Virus record (IMG/VR): IMGVR_UViG_2778261639_000018 | Source of the DNA: a virus | Lineage: Duplodnaviria; Heunggongvirae; Uroviricota; Caudoviricetes | Direction: 5' to 3' (one strand) | DNA: 4,432 bases | Shown here: piece after piece, positions 75 to 4,432 of the stretch | How positions within the stretch are numbered: position 1 is the first letter of the stretch | Layout of the letters: the number at the start of each line of letters is the position of its first letter | Made by a program: the position numbers and the translations under genes | The notes under the pieces: model-generated | Database searches by the model: none | Seen by the model: only the letters and a program-made list of their open reading frames with translations | Told to the model about the DNA's origin: nothing

Positions 75-1274
75 TCATAATGAGTTATTCCAGGTATTCT
101 TTAAGTTCCCTAACATTGTCTGCGTAGAGTCCTGAATAGCTTTCCAGCCACCTCTGGAATTAATCTGTGAACCAAGTTCTTTAGCAAATTTAGGAAGTGC
201 ATCAGAGGCTTTAACATCACCATTTTTCATCTTATCGAAAAGCTGTTTTTCAGTCAGACCTAAAGCCTTTGCAAATGCCTGAGTAGCACCCGGTAAAGCT
301 TCAGATAGTTGCCCCTTCAACTCCTCAGCCATCACCTGACCCTTAGAAGCCATCTGTGACACTGCGGTTAATGCTCTTTGAATCTGCTCATCTGAACGAC
401 CCATTAGACGGGCGTAACCTGTAAGGTTTTTAAATAACTCTTCTGACCCTTCAAGACCCATCGTAGTCGTTGCACTTGCACCAAATGAAGCAAATTGCGC
501 TTGTGTTTCGGTTGTGTCCATACCAGTAATTTGAGTTAAATCCTGAATGAACTTTTTAACCTGTGTACTTTGGTCACCGAATACGAAATCAATACTTCTT
601 TCCGATGATGCACGCTGTAAACCAACTTCCATTACTCGCTGATAAGCGGATAGTACAGCCTGAAAGCTGATAAATGCACCTGCTGTTTTAACTGCCGCTG
701 AACTTAAATTATCAAGACTATTAGCTGCTTTGTCACTATTAATGCTGGTGGATGTATGACCTCTGGCTTTAGCAATTGCTTCTCGTACACTTGAATTTAG
801 TTTAGCAAGGGCTTCATTAAACTTGGTGTTATCCATCTGACCAGCTTTACTAGCTAGCCCATAAAACTGACTCTTAATGTATTTCTCGACAATTGGGTTA
901 AGACCTTTTAGCTTAGACATATTCGCTGAATAAGCTGCTGTGATTGCTCTGTTGCCGCTAATTCGTGGCTGTCTTGGCTGTCTAAGTGGCTTTAAAGTAT
1001 CCTCAATTTCCGTTTTAATCTTAAACGCTCTAGTGTTTTTAAGACGCTGCTCAATCTTGTCAAAGGTCTTATTAAACTTCCTTTCAAGTTGCCCTAAAGA
1101 ACTTGTCAGATTGCTGTCAAGTTGCTTGGTATCGACCTTAAACGCTCTATTCAAATTACGTTCAATTCTTTGTGCTGACTGCAAAGCTGCCTTTTCAACT
1201 CTTTGCAAGCCCTTAATAACGTTCTCGCTGAAGCCTAGCTCAACGATAAAACTATCAACTGTGAATTTGCTCAT
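75..1274 (-). CDS. 399-aa protein with N-terminal coiled-coil region and C-terminal tape-measure-like domain (tentative phage tail tape-measure-related protein)
   Basis: Complete ORF with ATG start at complement 1272-1274 and GAGGTGA Shine-Dalgarno about 10 nt upstream; TGA stop at 75-77. The N-terminal ~120 residues are highly charged and heptad-like. Residues ~300-380 (GQVMAEELKGQLSEALPGATQAFAKALGLTEKQLFDKMKNGDVKASDALPKFAKELG) resemble, from memory, the conserved tape-measure domain of phage tail length proteins. At 399 aa it is short for a full tape-measure protein. Gene confidence is high; product confidence is moderate to low. Confidence 0.75.
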   Translation of the reverse strand: MSKFTVDSFIVELGFSENVIKGLQRVEKAALQSAQRIERNLNRAFKVDTKQLDSNLTSSLGQLERKFNKTFDKIEQRLKNTRAFKIKTEIEDTLKPLRQPRQPRISGNRAITAAYSANMSKLKGLNPIVEKYIKSQFYGLASKAGQMDNTKFNEALAKLNSSVREAIAKARGHTSTSINSDKAANSLDNLSSAAVKTAGAFISFQAVLSAYQRVMEVGLQRASSERSIDFVFGDQSTQVKKFIQDLTQITGMDTTETQAQFASFGASATTTMGLEGSEELFKNLTGYARLMGRSDEQIQRALTAVSQMASKGQVMAEELKGQLSEALPGATQAFAKALGLTEKQLFDKMKNGDVKASDALPKFAKELGSQINSRGGWKAIQDSTQTMLGNLKNTWNNSL

Positions 1275-1364
1275 TCATATTTTTCACCTCTTTAAGCGTG
1301 AGCTACGTAAATTCTATTTTTCAGTGTGGATATTAGCTTTACAGATTTCATGTAGCACACATAC

Positions 1365-1405
1365 AAAAAAAGGAGAAACTACCGATGTCACTCGATAATC
1401 TCTCC
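1365..1405 (-). terminator. Weak terminator-like hairpin plus T7 tract downstream of the 71-aa gene
   Basis: On the minus strand a GGAGA/TCTCC stem (plus 1372-1376 and 1401-1405; extendable with G-U pairs) is followed directly by seven T (complement of the A-run 1365-1371). The stem is short and the loop is 24 nt, so this is a weak call. Confidence 0.3.
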
Positions 1406-1455
1406 CCGTACTATAGATTCGATAGAACCTATCTCATACACCCAACCAATCTTTT

Positions 1456-1671
1456 TTAATGCCTGACAAGATAATGTAGTTCCGTTTCACCTATAATTTG
1501 AGCATCGGAAGGGATACGGTCGATACACCACTTTGGAATCTTGCGTGTTTTTGGTTTGCGTGAGGTGATAATTTGATGTTTGGTTTTAATTCTTAAGGCT
1601 GGCTTAGTTTGTAACTTTAAGTTTTCACAAACAGACTTAATAGTTTCATAGCGTTCTGTTAAATCAATCAT
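1456..1671 (-). CDS. 71-aa basic hypothetical protein
   Basis: ATG at complement 1669-1671 with GAGGTGA Shine-Dalgarno about 5 nt upstream; it starts 22 nt after the stop of the 234-aa gene. Lys/Arg-rich (about 15 K/R against about 8 D/E by my count). No recognisable family. Confidence 0.55.
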   Translation of the reverse strand: MIDLTERYETIKSVCENLKLQTKPALRIKTKHQIITSRKPKTRKIPKWCIDRIPSDAQIIGETELHYLVRH

Positions 1672-1693: not shown

Positions 1694-2398
1694 TTAAACA
1701 GCCTTGCTAAATTCTCGTGGAACACTCAGAAAATCATTGAAGCTGATAATCTGTGCCAACTCTTGACGGTACTCCTTAGCCAGCGCTTGATGGTCACTAA
1801 TCAGCTTAGCCAGTCTTGATTTCAGCAAATTAATCTCATTTTCTCTTGCTTTCATCAGTTTCTCTTTGGCAATTTCTTCAAGCTCAGCTTGTGATTTATC
1901 AGCAACAATTAGAGACAGTTGATGTGGCGCTCTGATGGCCCTTTCCGTACGAATAACCCTTTGACCTTCTGGTAAATCTGCAATCACTTTACCAATCTCT
2001 ACAGGGTCATACCCCCAACCGTCACGGTCTAGTCGAGAGAAATAAGCATAAGAATTGGTTTGAAGCTCCATCAAAATAGCCATTTCGTCGATTTCGTCTT
2101 CAAGCTTGGACTGAATTTTCTCGTAAACACTTCTCATTGCTTCTTGAGAGTCTTTAATAGCTTGGAAATATCGGCGTTGCAGCTTCAGTTTCAAATCAAG
2201 CTCACATTCCTCATTCATCGAAAAATCAATTTCAACTCTTGGAATCTCGAGTGGTTCTGGTGGAATATATGGACCTTTATTTACTTCGTGTGATTCCCGC
2301 CAAGCTCTATCAAAAGATTCACGCAAACTTAATTCGTGAATATCAAGTGCACTTGGTTTGTTTTCGATAATCATTTCATGTTCATCACGGATAGACAT
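1694..2398 (-). CDS. 234-aa acidic, coiled-coil-rich hypothetical protein
   Basis: ATG at complement 2396-2398 with AAGAGGA Shine-Dalgarno about 10 nt upstream; TAA stop at 1694-1696. Highly charged and net acidic (roughly 46 D/E against 34 K/R by my count), with a heptad-like C-terminal third (EINLLKSRLAKLISDHQALAKEYRQELAQI). No catalytic motif recognised. Confidence 0.75.
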   Translation of the reverse strand: MSIRDEHEMIIENKPSALDIHELSLRESFDRAWRESHEVNKGPYIPPEPLEIPRVEIDFSMNEECELDLKLKLQRRYFQAIKDSQEAMRSVYEKIQSKLEDEIDEMAILMELQTNSYAYFSRLDRDGWGYDPVEIGKVIADLPEGQRVIRTERAIRAPHQLSLIVADKSQAELEEIAKEKLMKARENEINLLKSRLAKLISDHQALAKEYRQELAQIISFNDFLSVPREFSKAV

Positions 2399-2507
2399 TA
2401 TTATTTTTCCTCTTCTAAGATAATTTATGTTTCAGTTTTTAAAAAGCACACCTGACAGCCTACGAACTTAGAAGAGACTTAAAAGGCGTTTGCCAAGTAT
2501 GCTTTTT

Positions 2508-2560
2508 AAAAGCTGAAAAAAGCCCTAAACATAGGTTCATCCTCATCTGTGAAGGGCTTT
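2508..2560 (-). terminator. Terminator-like hairpin A (8-bp stem AAAGCCCT/AGGGCTTT, 26-nt loop) followed by a T-tract on the minus strand
   Basis: Stem 2519-2526 pairs with 2553-2560. On the minus strand the stem is followed by TTTCAGCTTTT. The loop is long for a canonical intrinsic terminator, so a protein-binding dyad is an alternative reading. Confidence 0.4.
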
Positions 2561-2627
2561 GAAGGTTTGCTTTAACGTTAACGAAGTTTCAGGAAAAACT
2601 TTCTTTAAAAGCTCTGTTTAAAAACTC

Positions 2628-2659
2628 TTAAAGAAAACGCCCTAATCATGAGTTAGGGC
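2628..2659 (-). terminator. Rho-independent terminator B for the leftward three-gene operon
   Basis: Perfect 7-bp stem GCCCTAA (2639-2645) / TTAGGGC (2653-2659) with a 7-nt loop. On the minus strand it is followed immediately by GTTTTCTTT. There is no T-tract on the plus-strand side, so the orientation is minus. Confidence 0.55.
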
Positions 2660-2957
2660 AAAGCTGTAAGGGTTCAATAATGAATGATTAAGCACTTTTT
2701 GAGATGACCTCTCAGACTAAACTGAAAGGCCATGACGAAAAGCATTGCACCTTTCCAACTCAGAATATCCATCCATCGGATTATTGAAAATATGATTTTA
2801 GGAAAAATTGCTCTTCCTATATATACAATTATGTCATGCTTAAGATTATTTGTCAACAGCTTTTTAACAGATTGGTAACATCAATTTTTATTTACCGCGT
2901 TGCCCACCCAGCAACCAACAAATAAACCTAAAGCTGTCCAAGCAATTATCAATCCCA

Positions 2958-3281
2958 TTAGTGAACCCTCATAGAATCCGTCACCAGAATATTATCGCTG
3001 TGCAGGATTGTCACAGCACCTTTCAAAAATTGCTCTGGGGAAATACTGTATTTGTTCGTTTGCTCGATAATCAATCTTTTCATGTTCGAATCTGAAATTG
3101 GTAGCATCATTCGAGGCTCGTTAAACTCCACCGACTGAATAAAGTCAGAGATGTTTTCTGCATTATCAGCCATTAACTCTAACAACTTATCAAAGTCAAT
3201 GCTAACACCTACATCAGTGAAAGCCTGAATCATCATGGCGGTGTCGGTATCAATAAAAATCTGTAGTGGGAAATTATTCAT
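2958..3281 (-). CDS. 107-aa acidic hypothetical protein
   Basis: The ORF track extends this frame to 3404 via a TTG codon. I prefer the ATG at complement 3279-3281 (MNNFPLQ...), which has a TAGGAT Shine-Dalgarno about 8 nt upstream. An alternative ATG at 3305 lacks a Shine-Dalgarno. About 16 D/E against 7 K/R by my count; no transmembrane segment or known motif. Confidence 0.65.
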   Translation of the reverse strand: MNNFPLQIFIDTDTAMMIQAFTDVGVSIDFDKLLELMADNAENISDFIQSVEFNEPRMMLPISDSNMKRLIIEQTNKYSISPEQFLKGAVTILHSDNILVTDSMRVH

Positions 3282-3442: not shown

Positions 3443-3868
3443 TTATTTTGAATTGTCTTTATTAATCAATGATTTAACGTAGAAATACTGTCTCCGTGAA
3501 ATACCATATTTTTCTGTAATGTATCGCTGAGATTGACCAGCATTTATGGCCTGAGTGATATCATCACGGTTATAGCGGTTACCACGGGATTTATATTTGT
3601 CACCATCCACATCTTCTGAGGTATTGAAGTCTTCAATCAGCTTAATTGCATCGTGAAGGTCATCTTCTGAGGCATAATCGAAGGTATGGATAATCTCAAA
3701 ATCACCAGTATCTGCTGGTGCATTCTTCCATCTGGAGAAGCGGGATTTTAATTGCTGGTGTGTGAAGGGTTCAGCATTACGAGTTAAATCTTTCCATGTT
3801 CCGTTATTCTCACGGACAAGATGACCTCTATGGCGATAAAACGCATGATAATCAAATGTGCATAGCAT
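3443..3868 (-). CDS. 141-aa DNA-binding protein with C-terminal helix-turn-helix, tentatively Mor/C-family (Mu middle/late activator-like)
   Basis: ATG at complement 3866-3868 overlaps the stop of the upstream gene (TAATG), and a GGAGG Shine-Dalgarno lies in the last codons of that gene. The C-terminal segment RDDITQAINAGQSQRYITEKYGISRRQYFYV aligns without gaps to my recollection of the phage Mu Mor C-terminal HTH (RDLRIWNDFNGRNVSELTTRYGVTFNTVYKA) at R, D, G, T, K/R, YG, I/V, S/T and an aromatic pair. This is recall, not a search result. Confidence 0.7.
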   Translation of the reverse strand: MLCTFDYHAFYRHRGHLVRENNGTWKDLTRNAEPFTHQQLKSRFSRWKNAPADTGDFEIIHTFDYASEDDLHDAIKLIEDFNTSEDVDGDKYKSRGNRYNRDDITQAINAGQSQRYITEKYGISRRQYFYVKSLINKDNSK

Positions 3869-4158
3869 TAAACCTCCAATTTATCAGCAAGCTTGCAAAC
3901 CTTATCGCTCAAGACCTGAATCATTGAGCAGCCTGTACCTTTAGTTTGTGTTCTCAGTTCATCCAATTGCTCTACTGTGATACGGATAGCCTTAGAACCC
4001 TCTGCAACGTCCTTGATAGCGTCAAACGGTGTAAGGGCTGTGTGTTCCTTCAGAATCTCACCAACAAGTGCTGTGTGGCTCATGGCTGGGTATTTGTCTT
4101 TGATTGCTGCCAGTCTGGAATATGCCTCTGGCAAAAGGCGCGTAACTGTGTGTCTCAT
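3868..4158 (-). CDS. 96-aa ribbon-helix-helix-type DNA-binding protein, apparently two tandem RHH-like repeats
   Basis: ATG at complement 4156-4158 with AAGGA Shine-Dalgarno about 7 nt upstream; it is the first gene downstream of the divergent promoter. Residues ~2-40 (RHTVTRLLPEAYSRLAAIKDKYPAMSHTALVGEILKEH) and ~58-90 (IRITVEQLDELRTQTKGTGCSMIQVLSDKV) both fit the beta-strand / helix / G-x-S-T turn / helix pattern of Arc, CopG and TraY-type proteins. Confidence 0.7.
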   Translation of the reverse strand: MRHTVTRLLPEAYSRLAAIKDKYPAMSHTALVGEILKEHTALTPFDAIKDVAEGSKAIRITVEQLDELRTQTKGTGCSMIQVLSDKVCKLADKLEV

Positions 4159-4194: not shown

Positions 4195-4223
4195 ACTTTA
4201 ACATATTTATAACATATTGTCAA
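4195..4223 (-). promoter_or_regulatory. Sigma70-like promoter for the leftward RHH operon
   Basis: On the minus strand: perfect -35 TTGACA (complement of 4218-4223), 17-nt spacer, -10 TAAAGT (complement of 4195-4200; 4 of 6). The predicted start is about 30 nt upstream of the ATG at 4158. Confidence 0.45.
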
Positions 4224-4241
4224 CATCTCATTTACATGATA
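4198..4241. promoter_or_regulatory. Four AACAT/TACAT iterons at exact 11-bp spacing (candidate operator)
   Basis: ACAT cores at 4201-4204, 4212-4215, 4223-4226 and 4234-4237. The first two units share TAACATATT. The array overlaps the -35 elements of both divergent promoters. TTATAAC also recurs at 4186-4192 and 4207-4213. Confidence 0.45.
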
Positions 4242-4245
4242 TTAT
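4217..4245 (+). promoter_or_regulatory. Rightward sigma70-like promoter with extended -10
   Basis: -35 TTGTCA at 4217-4222, 17-nt spacer, TG at 4237-4238 and -10 TATTAT at 4240-4245. A second weaker candidate upstream is TTGACT (4181-4186) with TATTTA (4204-4209) after 17 nt. Confidence 0.5.
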
Positions 4246-4295: not shown

Positions 4296-4432
4296 ATGGG
4301 CTTTCTTGAAACAATTGCTGAATCTCACAGATTCGCAAGCTTAGGTTGCTTTGTGCTGATGAATCCCCTAATGATTTTGGTAAAAATCATTAAGTTAAGG
4401 TGGATACACATCTTGTCATATGATCAAATGGT
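4296..4432 (+). CDS. Possible 5' end of a rightward gene running off the right edge (partial, product unknown)
   Basis: ATG at 4296-4298 with AAGGGG Shine-Dalgarno 5 nt upstream, about 43 nt downstream of the rightward promoter. The frame stays open for 45 codons to the window edge (MGFLETIAESHRFASLGCFVLMNPLMILVK...). It is hydrophobic, has no recognisable motif, and could be non-coding leader. Confidence 0.3.
   Translation, partial: MGFLETIAESHRFASLGCFVLMNPLMILVKIIKLRWIHILSYDQM

Follow-up and report, generated by a model that had tools for sequence, protein, structure and literature searches.

A candidate control region combining a promoter, a structured RNA, sister terminators and a masked ribosome-binding site ahead of tail genes in an Escherichia coli element

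In phage lambda, the promoter PR' makes a 194-nucleotide (nt) 6S RNA that ends at the terminator tR' unless Q acts. The terminated short RNA of Shiga toxin (Stx) phages, StxS, is a functional Hfq-binding small RNA (sRNA) with a function in trans. A perfect stem of 20-25 base pairs (bp) is the kind of substrate that RNase III cuts. Here we analysed a gap between two genes, positions 2,399 to 2,957, in a 4,432-nt stretch of DNA from a Caudoviricetes record (IMG/VR record IMGVR_UViG_2778261639_000018); this whole stretch is called the window. All open reading frames (ORFs) of the window lie on the minus strand, and the gap runs, as a preliminary description of the sequence had placed it, from the stop of a 107-amino-acid (aa) ORF at 2958 to the start of a 234-aa ORF at 2398. 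A strong promoter is followed 160-300 nt downstream by terminators, with tape-measure and Dit genes beyond them. We propose, with a probability of roughly one half, that the gap controls both transcription and translation of the tail-gene block and is built like PR'-6S RNA-tR' of lambda. The promoter, the RNA structure, the terminators and the masking of a Shine-Dalgarno (SD) sequence are much firmer than the regulatory logic proposed to join them.

Of 5,426 complete E. coli genomes, about 480 (~9%) contain related DNA, with 75-95% identity, and it is chromosomal without exception. The gap keeps a length of 500-620 bp in these genomes despite differing flanking gene sets, and each RefSeq copy inspected carries no annotated feature in it. 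The preliminary description had made its proposals depend on conservation of the region in related elements; the gap is indeed kept, and the structure of an RNA encoded in it covaries. Relatives for comparison came from two sources. The first was BLAST against E. coli genomes, sampled over the whole ranking (loci L001-L016), and the second was a search for an 18-nt pattern, taken from an invariant block of that RNA, in contigs from viruses and metagenomes, plus a −35 filter. After chance matches had been removed, there were 108 loci with 95 distinct versions spanning the −35 to the ATG of the 234-aa gene. Because the 18-nt block and the −35 both served to collect loci, their invariance outside the BLAST set is there by construction; even in the BLAST-derived set (17 gaps), these two are the best-conserved stretches.

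A predicted sigma-70 promoter lies at 2856..2828 on the minus strand. It consists of TTGACA (2856..2851), a 17-nt spacer and an extended −10, TGaCATAAT (−10 at 2833..2828), scores 11/12 against the consensus plus the TG, and has a predicted transcription start near 2821. In the gaps of L001, L012 and L003, which represent the three leader types described below, this site was the sole sense-strand promoter-like match. TTGACA with the 17-nt spacing was present in all 72 distinct upstream versions, as was the TG, the loci having been selected by requiring this −35. Judged from its sequence, the promoter does not look activator-dependent, and it presumably fires.

Transcription from this promoter would yield a structured non-coding RNA of ~190 nt (2628..2821, minus strand), reaching from the predicted start to the U-tract of the first of two terminators, terminator B. 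Among relatives its length is 185-261 nt. The preliminary description had suggested a small RNA derived from a 3' untranslated region; a structured RNA is found before B, but it is not merely 3'-derived, as it has its own invariant promoter. The folding z-score of the RNA is −3.4. RNAalifold on an alignment of 65 distinct versions (A1) returned four helices, namely a 5' hairpin (HP1), a hairpin formed by the invariant block, a further hairpin (HP2) and terminator B. Over these four helices, 98.9% of the cells in the alignment were paired, compared with 43-63% when the partner was slid by 1-3 columns. Double-change cells numbered 54 against 17 ± 3 in shuffles, and 0 of 500 shuffles reached 54. 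Six pairs had changes on both sides, a count that 320 of 500 shuffles also reached, so this number gives no support by itself. The covariation is confined to HP1 and HP2; the invariant hairpin and terminator B are uninformative in this respect because neither varies, apart from an A-U/G·U change in B. For a data set drawn from within a genus, the covariation is unusually clean.

HP1 (AGGAAGAG-CAA-UUUUUCCU, 2800..2818, minus strand; helix 1) has a purine-rich 5' arm and a pyrimidine-rich 3' arm. Three of its six pairs change on both sides, and 94.9% of its cells are paired. HP2 (AUGGCCUUUCAG-UUUAGU-CUGAGAGGUCAU, 2704..2733, minus strand; helix 3) is paired in 99.8% of cells, with three pairs that change on both sides and at least six stem haplotypes that keep pairing. 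The invariant block GAAAGGUGCAAUGCUUUUCG (2736..2755, minus strand; helix 2) folds as GAAAGGU-GCAAU-GCUUUUC, shows no variation and contains two G·U pairs, and its 3' arm has an alternative partner, AAAAGU, after HP2. The RNA is modular. A (GAUG)n run (2767..2779, minus strand) occurs in 2-6 copies among relatives and a (CAUU)n/AU-rich stretch that precedes terminator B (2673..2689, minus strand) in 1-4 copies, and besides these tetranucleotide runs there are optional hairpin inserts of 20-28 nt. The sense fold beats the antisense fold in 63 of the 65 versions (−60.3 versus −51.2 kcal/mol). This advantage, together with the frequent G·U pairs, indicates that the functional strand is the minus strand. 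Long-range helices, such as one between the (GAUG)n and (CAUU)n runs, which are complementary if G·U pairs are allowed, and one between UUCAAUAAU and AUUAUUGAA, were rejected, since covariation in a column-pair scan was confined to HP1 and HP2.

No conserved ORF was found in the RNA, whose longest ORFs were of 59 different kinds and 5-46 aa long. A 32-aa ORF inside it (MDILSW…) was rejected because neither frame nor length is kept, and a 48-aa plus-strand ORF at 2732-2878 was rejected as it is not conserved and crosses an indel-rich stretch. With Rfam 15, no family reached its gathering score in the gap. A permissive scan of the gap gave only sub-threshold matches at chance level (a miRNA precursor, SSRC34 and Phe_leader at E = 2.6), and the sole meaningful Rfam match in the window was RNA-OUT of IS10 at its edge. 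The Phe_leader match, which reflects a U-rich mini-ORF (MFRAFFSF) overlapping terminator A, was dropped, since it is not conserved and some variants lack the ATG. With its own promoter, a U-tailed intrinsic terminator and no conserved ORF, the RNA has the sequence features of an independent sRNA transcription unit. It is a candidate family with covariation support that is missing from Rfam.

The pattern GCCCTAAWCATRRG matches the window only at 2522 and 2639 and had 0 matches in 200 shuffles, which bears out the two related 14-mers, each beginning a hairpin, of the preliminary description; the minus-strand T-tracts and the common CTGT(G)AAGGG that it reported after both hairpins are also real. 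The 14-mers sit within a 21-nt direct repeat (2517-2537 and 2634-2654, 81% identity). Terminator B, (U)GCCCUAA-CUCAUGA-UUAGGGC(G) then UUUUCUUU (2628..2660, minus strand), was found by a terminator scan. Its hairpin (2660..2638) has an 8-bp stem with four G-C pairs and a 7-nt loop, followed in the DNA by TTTTCTTT; the stem, at −9.2 kcal/mol, is invariant except for a change of A-U to G·U in seven versions. Terminator A, AAAGCCCU-UC-ACAGA ... UAUGU-UU-AGGGCUUU then UUUUUU (2513..2560, minus strand), was found as an inverted repeat with arms at 2519-2531 and 2548-2560, and the scanner missed it solely because it exceeds the loop limit. It has a basal and an inner stem, folds with −13.5 kcal/mol and is followed by six U. 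Its 21 variants share the same basal stem and carry apex inserts of 0, 11 or 30 nt. Both hairpins are G+C-rich stem-loops with an immediate U-tract and, as had been suggested, they look like intrinsic terminators of the coding strand (minus), placed after the small-gene operon and ahead of the downstream block; termination at B and A would be expected to be efficient. Two tandem GCCCT…AGGGC hairpins were present in 68 of the 95 distinct versions. Most of the other 27 had one by the patterns used, and seven of them matched no pattern, of which the one that was read, from E. albertii, has a single such hairpin and then U's.

Ahead of B lies CCCUUACAG, which resembles GCCCUUCACAG, the 5' arm of A, and some relatives have recombined across the repeats so that the RNA body is fused directly to terminator A. 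Both hairpins also share an inversion polymorphism: 41 versions have TCATGAG as the loop of B and 23 have CTCATGA, the reverse complement, and the whole interior of A is inverted in L083. Because of the resembling flanks, the fusion recombinants and the common inversion polymorphism, we regard A and B as true sister copies, in line with the earlier view that they are diverged copies of one element. The inversions look like template switching or stem-mediated flipping. The U-tract of B is also the 5' arm of an AU-rich hairpin, UUUCUUUAAGAG ... CUUUUAAAGAAA then GUUUUU (2600..2636, minus strand), which was detected as an inverted repeat and appears in the minimum free energy (MFE) fold and as a consensus helix, its variants having G-C in place of G·U or a shorter loop. 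A third terminator-like hairpin (1407..1370), of 16 bp and followed by TTTTT, lies within 1360-1407 (minus strand) between the 71-aa and tape-measure genes and is conserved in L003 (529..494). It fits a downstream block that requires processive read-through.

The preliminary description had also offered the two dyads as DNA to which a dimeric regulator such as the Mor-like protein could bind. On this reading, either the 96-aa protein of the upstream operon or the 141-aa 'Mor-like' one would bind there and activate a −35-less promoter of the 234-aa gene. The dyad symmetry of the hairpins is real, their stems are invariant and the 234-aa gene has no recognisable promoter. However, the 141-aa and 96-aa proteins match no Mor or other family, and in most related elements their genes are replaced by genes for 184, 92 and 71 aa and an HNH protein, yet the hairpins are identical. 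Hairpin A differs by tens of nt both in its distance from the ATG and in the length of its apex, the loops flip orientation, and the U-tracts, the G·U pairs and the asymmetry between strands accord with RNA hairpins. We hold binding by such a dimer to be very improbable.

We found that the stretch 2640..2396 has a folding z-score of −6.8. A long leader hairpin (2430..2518, minus strand), with a stem of ~25 bp in the window and ~20 bp in leaders of type III, starts directly after terminator A; it was seen as an inverted repeat with 28-nt arms that are 86% complementary. The leader exists in three sequence types with compensating arms and about three sense-orientation G·U pairs each. The arms are CAGCUUUUAAAAAGCAUACUUGGCA with UGUCAGGUGUGCUUUUUAAAAACUG in type I, CAAUUCAUAAAAGCACACUUGGCAG with UUGCUGAGUGUGCUUCUAUGAAUUG in type II and CUUAAUAGAGCAUCUUUAAU with GUUGAAGGUGCUCUAUUAAG in type III. 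Its sense fold is stabler than the antisense fold in 36 of 42 versions, with means of −32.9 and −24.5 kcal/mol. Because the hairpin begins within a few nt of the U-tract of A, there is no room for a separate promoter. A consensus scan found no promoter-like site between terminator B and the 234-aa ATG in any leader type, in agreement with the earlier remark that this gene has no recognisable −35, and on reading the sequence of the leader no sigma-54 or Ogr/C-type promoter motif was found. A sense-strand leader structure that starts at terminator A, without a sigma-70-like promoter, indicates that the downstream genes are most simply transcribed by read-through. The insulation of the operon that was proposed earlier is incomplete.

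The apex of the leader carries an anti-SD stretch, CUCUUCUAAG (2467..2476, minus strand), whose 10 nt are 100% complementary to 2410-2419 in the ribosome-binding region of the 234-aa gene (CUUAGAAGAGGAAAAAUAAUA, 2399..2419, minus strand), which precedes the AUG at 2398. In each leader type, the apex is perfectly complementary to part of the 25 nt before the AUG, overlapping the SD. The pairing is CUCUUCUAAG with CUUAGAAGAG in type I (2476-2467 with 2419-2410), UUCACCUCU with AGAGGUGAA in type II and UCUAAGUGU with ACACUUAGA in type III. This complementarity is 8-12 nt long in most versions and 6-7 nt in four, and 0.4-1.3% of trials with shuffled SD regions attained as much. A further pyrimidine stretch, UUUUUCCUGAAA (2587..2598, minus strand), repeats the 3'-arm motif of HP1 and was detected as a direct repeat; it is complementary to AGGAAAAA at the same ribosome-binding site, and the two are paired in the MFE and centroid folds. 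With the SD paired to the leader apex, translation would need a second step. The three leader types, which keep the SD/anti-SD pairing through different sequences, provide a clean natural experiment for translational masking.

These results bear on a plainer account, that the gap is a long 3' spacer with two redundant insulating terminators and nothing else functional. Both hairpins are good minus-strand terminators that end the upstream operon, as that account would have it. However, it leaves no place for the invariant near-consensus promoter, the covarying hairpins between this promoter and B, the covarying leader with SD complementarity after A, or a conserved peptide ORF described below, nor for a gap length held at 500-620 bp in ~480 genomes with different flanking gene sets. 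The data on conservation and covariation already contradict a mere spacer, which we consider decidedly unlikely.

A stand-alone sRNA gene is a more serious contender. The ~190-nt RNA would then act in trans from a gene that stands before operon-end terminators, with host or helper-phage mRNAs or the 234-aa leader as targets by base pairing, and the 234-aa operon would have its own unrecognised promoter, for example an activator-dependent or −35-less one. A strong promoter and a U-tailed hairpin after an AU-rich stretch and an A-rich single strand are typical sRNA anatomy, and StxS is an established prophage precedent. The invariant 20-nt block points to sequence-specific recognition and, from its sequence, is a candidate seed of a trans-acting sRNA. 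Within it, AUGCUUUU shows complementarity to AAAAGCAU of the leader's 5' arm, over 8 nt in type I and over 7 nt in the other two types; this could mean alternative pairing in cis or in trans, or an old duplication. However, predicted duplexes between the RNA and the leader were no better than with shuffled leaders, none of the leader types has a promoter-like site beyond terminator B, and the covarying leader begins directly after terminator A, so it is transcribed from upstream. We regard this explanation as possible but somewhat doubtful; it and the control-region reading are not mutually exclusive. A separate observation is that the stretch GGUGCAAUGCUUUU of the invariant block resembles GGUGUGCUUUUU of the 3' arm of the leader hairpin (2736-2755 versus 2430-2457 / 2491-2518).

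According to the control-region reading, the promoter at 2856..2828 would make the structured RNA, which would end at terminator B with the sister terminator A as a back-up, and transcripts of the upstream small-gene operon would likewise terminate at B or A. The 234-aa, 71-aa, tape-measure and Dit genes, having no promoter of their own, would be expressed only on read-through of B, A and the third hairpin, by polymerases that start at the 2856 promoter or at an early-operon promoter near 4223..4195. In the transcript that results, the SD of the 234-aa gene would be paired with the leader apex, possibly also with the upstream UUUUUCCU. Unmasking might come from RNase III cleavage of the long stem or from a trans-acting factor; we infer that an RNase III cut would free the mRNA of its anti-SD apex, as RNase III does in the leader of lambda N. 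The terminated RNA may also work in trans, like StxS. Both the regulation of the read-through and the mode of SD unmasking would belong to the conditional part of this scheme.

Several points weigh against it. The transcription start, the 3' ends and the read-through are all predictions from sequence. No antiterminator was found, the 107-aa protein being without a match to Q, N or any other family, and its low-confidence structural model points to a repressor rather than to a factor of the Q type. An activator-dependent or non-sigma-70 promoter, beyond the reach of a consensus scan, may lie in the spacer or the terminator A region. Collection of loci by the pattern and the −35 filter makes the invariance of these two pieces partly built-in, and the shuffle statistics for covariation overstate independence because the relatives are Escherichia and Shigella only and are mosaic recombinants. 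The leader types amount to about two independent compensations and not three, because types I and III share UCUAAG/CUUAGA.

The preliminary description had called the gap non-coding, with no convincing coding sequence. This does not hold, as it begins with a conserved ORF, to be followed by the RNA gene with its own promoter. The ORF is unannotated and encodes a 25-aa hydrophobic single-helix peptide, MGLIIAWTALGLFVGCWVGNAVNKN (2958..2881, minus strand), with a start codon that overlaps the TAA ending the 107-aa gene. One of the earlier suggestions for the ~280 nt ahead of hairpin B had been a small peptide of hydrophobic character. Of 103 related loci, ~97 keep the 25-aa peptide or an alternative 21-aa hydrophobic peptide (MELVIICFVLIGMIAGASIKV). 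Among 38 variants of the peptide, the commonest is encoded by up to eight different DNA versions, and the TAATG overlap of the 107-aa stop with the peptide ATG is present in 98 of 102 loci. A conserved peptide encoded by differing DNA versions and joined by a TAATG overlap is the hallmark of a small gene that is translated and translationally coupled. A hydrophobic peptide that adjoins an RNA gene with a near-consensus promoter brings to mind a type I toxin-antitoxin pair, with the peptide as toxin and the RNA as antitoxin, the more so as the HP1 loop has 8 nt of complementarity to the 3' end of the peptide ORF. However, the RNA is co-directional and downstream instead of antisense, translational coupling ties the peptide to the 107-aa gene within the operon, and on reading the sequences the 8-nt complementarity is lost in relatives such as L005 and L009. 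We find a toxin-antitoxin pair hardly credible.

The 107-aa gene (3281..2958, minus strand) adjoins the gap upstream. A homologue search gave 2,942 matches, and all 120 listed were unnamed hypothetical proteins from Escherichia or Shigella. A low-confidence structural model (predicted local distance difference test, pLDDT, 65) resembles tandem ribbon-helix-helix DNA binders, namely TraY, AvtR and single-chain Arc. Judged from this model, the protein is perhaps a DNA-binding regulator that acts on the adjacent promoter. We looked for a Q-family antiterminator gene beside the promoter, as in a PR'/tR' layout, and found none; searches of Pfam, PHROG and NCBIfam gave no match for the 107-, 141- and 96-aa proteins.

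A family of short hairpin modules was also observed, with the form TGA-GG(stem)-loop(often TTC/CTT)-(stem)CC-GAA, in which the flanks are fixed and the stems covary; examples are TGAGGATAGTCTTCTATCCGAA, TGAGGTATGTTCTATACCGAA and TGAGGTAGATTCTACCGAA. There were 118 instances in 1.2 Mb of fetched loci, compared with 4-10 in shuffles. Intact copies are found, for example, at L017:20167(-), L017:24263(-), L151:7533(+), L152:3952(+) and L153:5473(-), and the window has a decayed copy at 2533-2546, in the apex/loop of terminator A. In the RNA and the leader, the modules are present or absent at three fixed sites and always on the sense strand. Others lie on both strands of non-coding DNA, close to the small recombinase gene and ahead of the tape-measure gene, and none was found in flanking chromosomal genes in the whole-element loci that were checked. 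Their flanks could form tandem G·A pairs, and the modules are candidates for a protein-binding RNA or single-stranded DNA hairpin, or for a miniature mobile palindrome. A bolder suggestion, which we consider unlikely, is that the RNA and the UGA-GG…CC-GAA modules together constitute an undescribed RNA-based control that switches on a minimal tail-initiation cassette (tape-measure and Dit), the carriers being a new family of E. coli satellites or defence islands with serine recombinases. Processive antitermination and the sensing of a helper phage are two ways in which such control could operate.

In transcription order the window begins with the 96-aa gene (4158..3868) and the 141-aa gene (3868..3443), which with the 107-aa gene precede the gap. 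The downstream block consists of the 234-aa gene (1694..2398), the 71-aa gene (1671..1456) and the tape-measure gene (1274..75), all three on the minus strand, and, in intact elements, a Dit-like gene, and its tail genes have the Pfam matches TMP_3 and Dit_like. The 234-aa gene, the first of the block, is the presumed target of the gap control region. For the 96-, 141-, 107-, 234- and 71-aa proteins there was no above-threshold match in Pfam, PHROG, NCBIfam, PADLOC or PDB sequences. Some homologues of the 234-aa protein (in L005, L006, L007, L010 and L014) are labelled 'transposase' in RefSeq; the protein matched no transposase family above threshold, its best match being DUF7384 at 21 bits, below the cut-off. 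Upstream of the 96-aa gene, opposed and overlapping promoter-like sites were seen at 4195-4245, TTGACA-17-TAAAGT on the minus strand (4223..4195) and TTGTCA-17-TATTAT on the plus strand (4217..4245). They are probably the promoter/operator region of the early operon.

The window is bounded by an IS629 end (1-83, 96% identical to the copies in Stx phages) and an IS10 end (4352-4432, with a partial match to RNA-OUT), and the IS629 end cuts the tape-measure gene to 399 aa, compared with 690-710 aa in intact elements. Because insertion sequence ends bound the window and one of them truncates this gene, the copy of the element in the window is damaged. Intact copies are islands of ~11 kb, with a large serine recombinase at one end and a small resolvase-type recombinase at the other (whole-element loci L017:14375-24907 and L151-L153). 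They also hold variable small genes, a 102-109-aa gene, the gap, the 234-aa and ~70-aa genes, and a 690-710-aa tape-measure and a Dit-like protein as the only recognisable structural genes. The tape-measure protein is ~32% identical to its counterparts in FelixO1-like phages. The elements are inserted in at least three chromosomal sites, tonB-yciI among them, and could be satellites or defence islands. A plasmid collection had no match to the gap or the 234-aa protein, and 50,697 phage genomes contained no relative of either. In the genome-collection scan, the 234-aa protein was found outside E. coli in E. albertii alone. Literature searches by sequence strings and by element features found no description of this element family. 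A region of ~560 bp that is unannotated in ~9% of complete E. coli genomes thus holds a peptide gene, an RNA gene and what we propose to be a switch of two layers, termination and ribosome-binding-site masking. It offers a testable entry point into gene activation by an uncharacterised mobile element.

The closest described systems are PR'/tR' of lambda and StxS. On the control-region reading, as there, a constitutive-looking promoter makes a short RNA (194 nt in lambda, ~190 nt here) that ends at an intrinsic terminator before late or structural genes, which need read-through; further terminators lie within the late block, and the terminated RNA can be an sRNA, as StxS is. The two differ in several respects. 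Instead of a Q-family gene, there is an upstream 107-aa protein that, in its model, looks like a tandem ribbon-helix-helix protein. No Q-binding or pause element is recognisable, although there is no cross-family Q consensus to scan with. There are two paralogous terminators, whereas lambda has one, and a long structured leader masks the SD of the first late gene. The setting is a serine-recombinase island of ~11 kb and not a lambdoid phage, and there is no sequence similarity.

For the translational layer, the nearest parallels are the lambda N leader, with its RNase III-cut hairpin, and the Mu com-mom stem, in which a long upstream hairpin likewise sequesters a ribosome-binding site and expression requires processing or an opening factor. 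In the present leader, however, the SD pairs with the apex of the hairpin, in the manner of a pseudoknot, and not with a stem arm, and no Com-like zinc-finger gene was seen here. The CI RNA of P4 and c4 of P1/P7 are similar in that a constitutive structured leader RNA and premature termination hold downstream genes off. They differ in that no repeated complementarity of the seqA/seqB/seqC type and no sequence or Rfam similarity was found here, and P4 controls replication genes whereas the genes here are tail genes. The invariant hairpin and HP2, two adjacent stem-loops between a strong promoter and terminators, resemble HK022 put in layout only; the analogy sits badly with the retention of two strong terminators, because a put-type RNA would make read-through constitutive. 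The individual parts of the gap are ordinary, and the known kind to which it comes closest is a prophage-type terminated leader or sRNA joined to a translational-masking leader.

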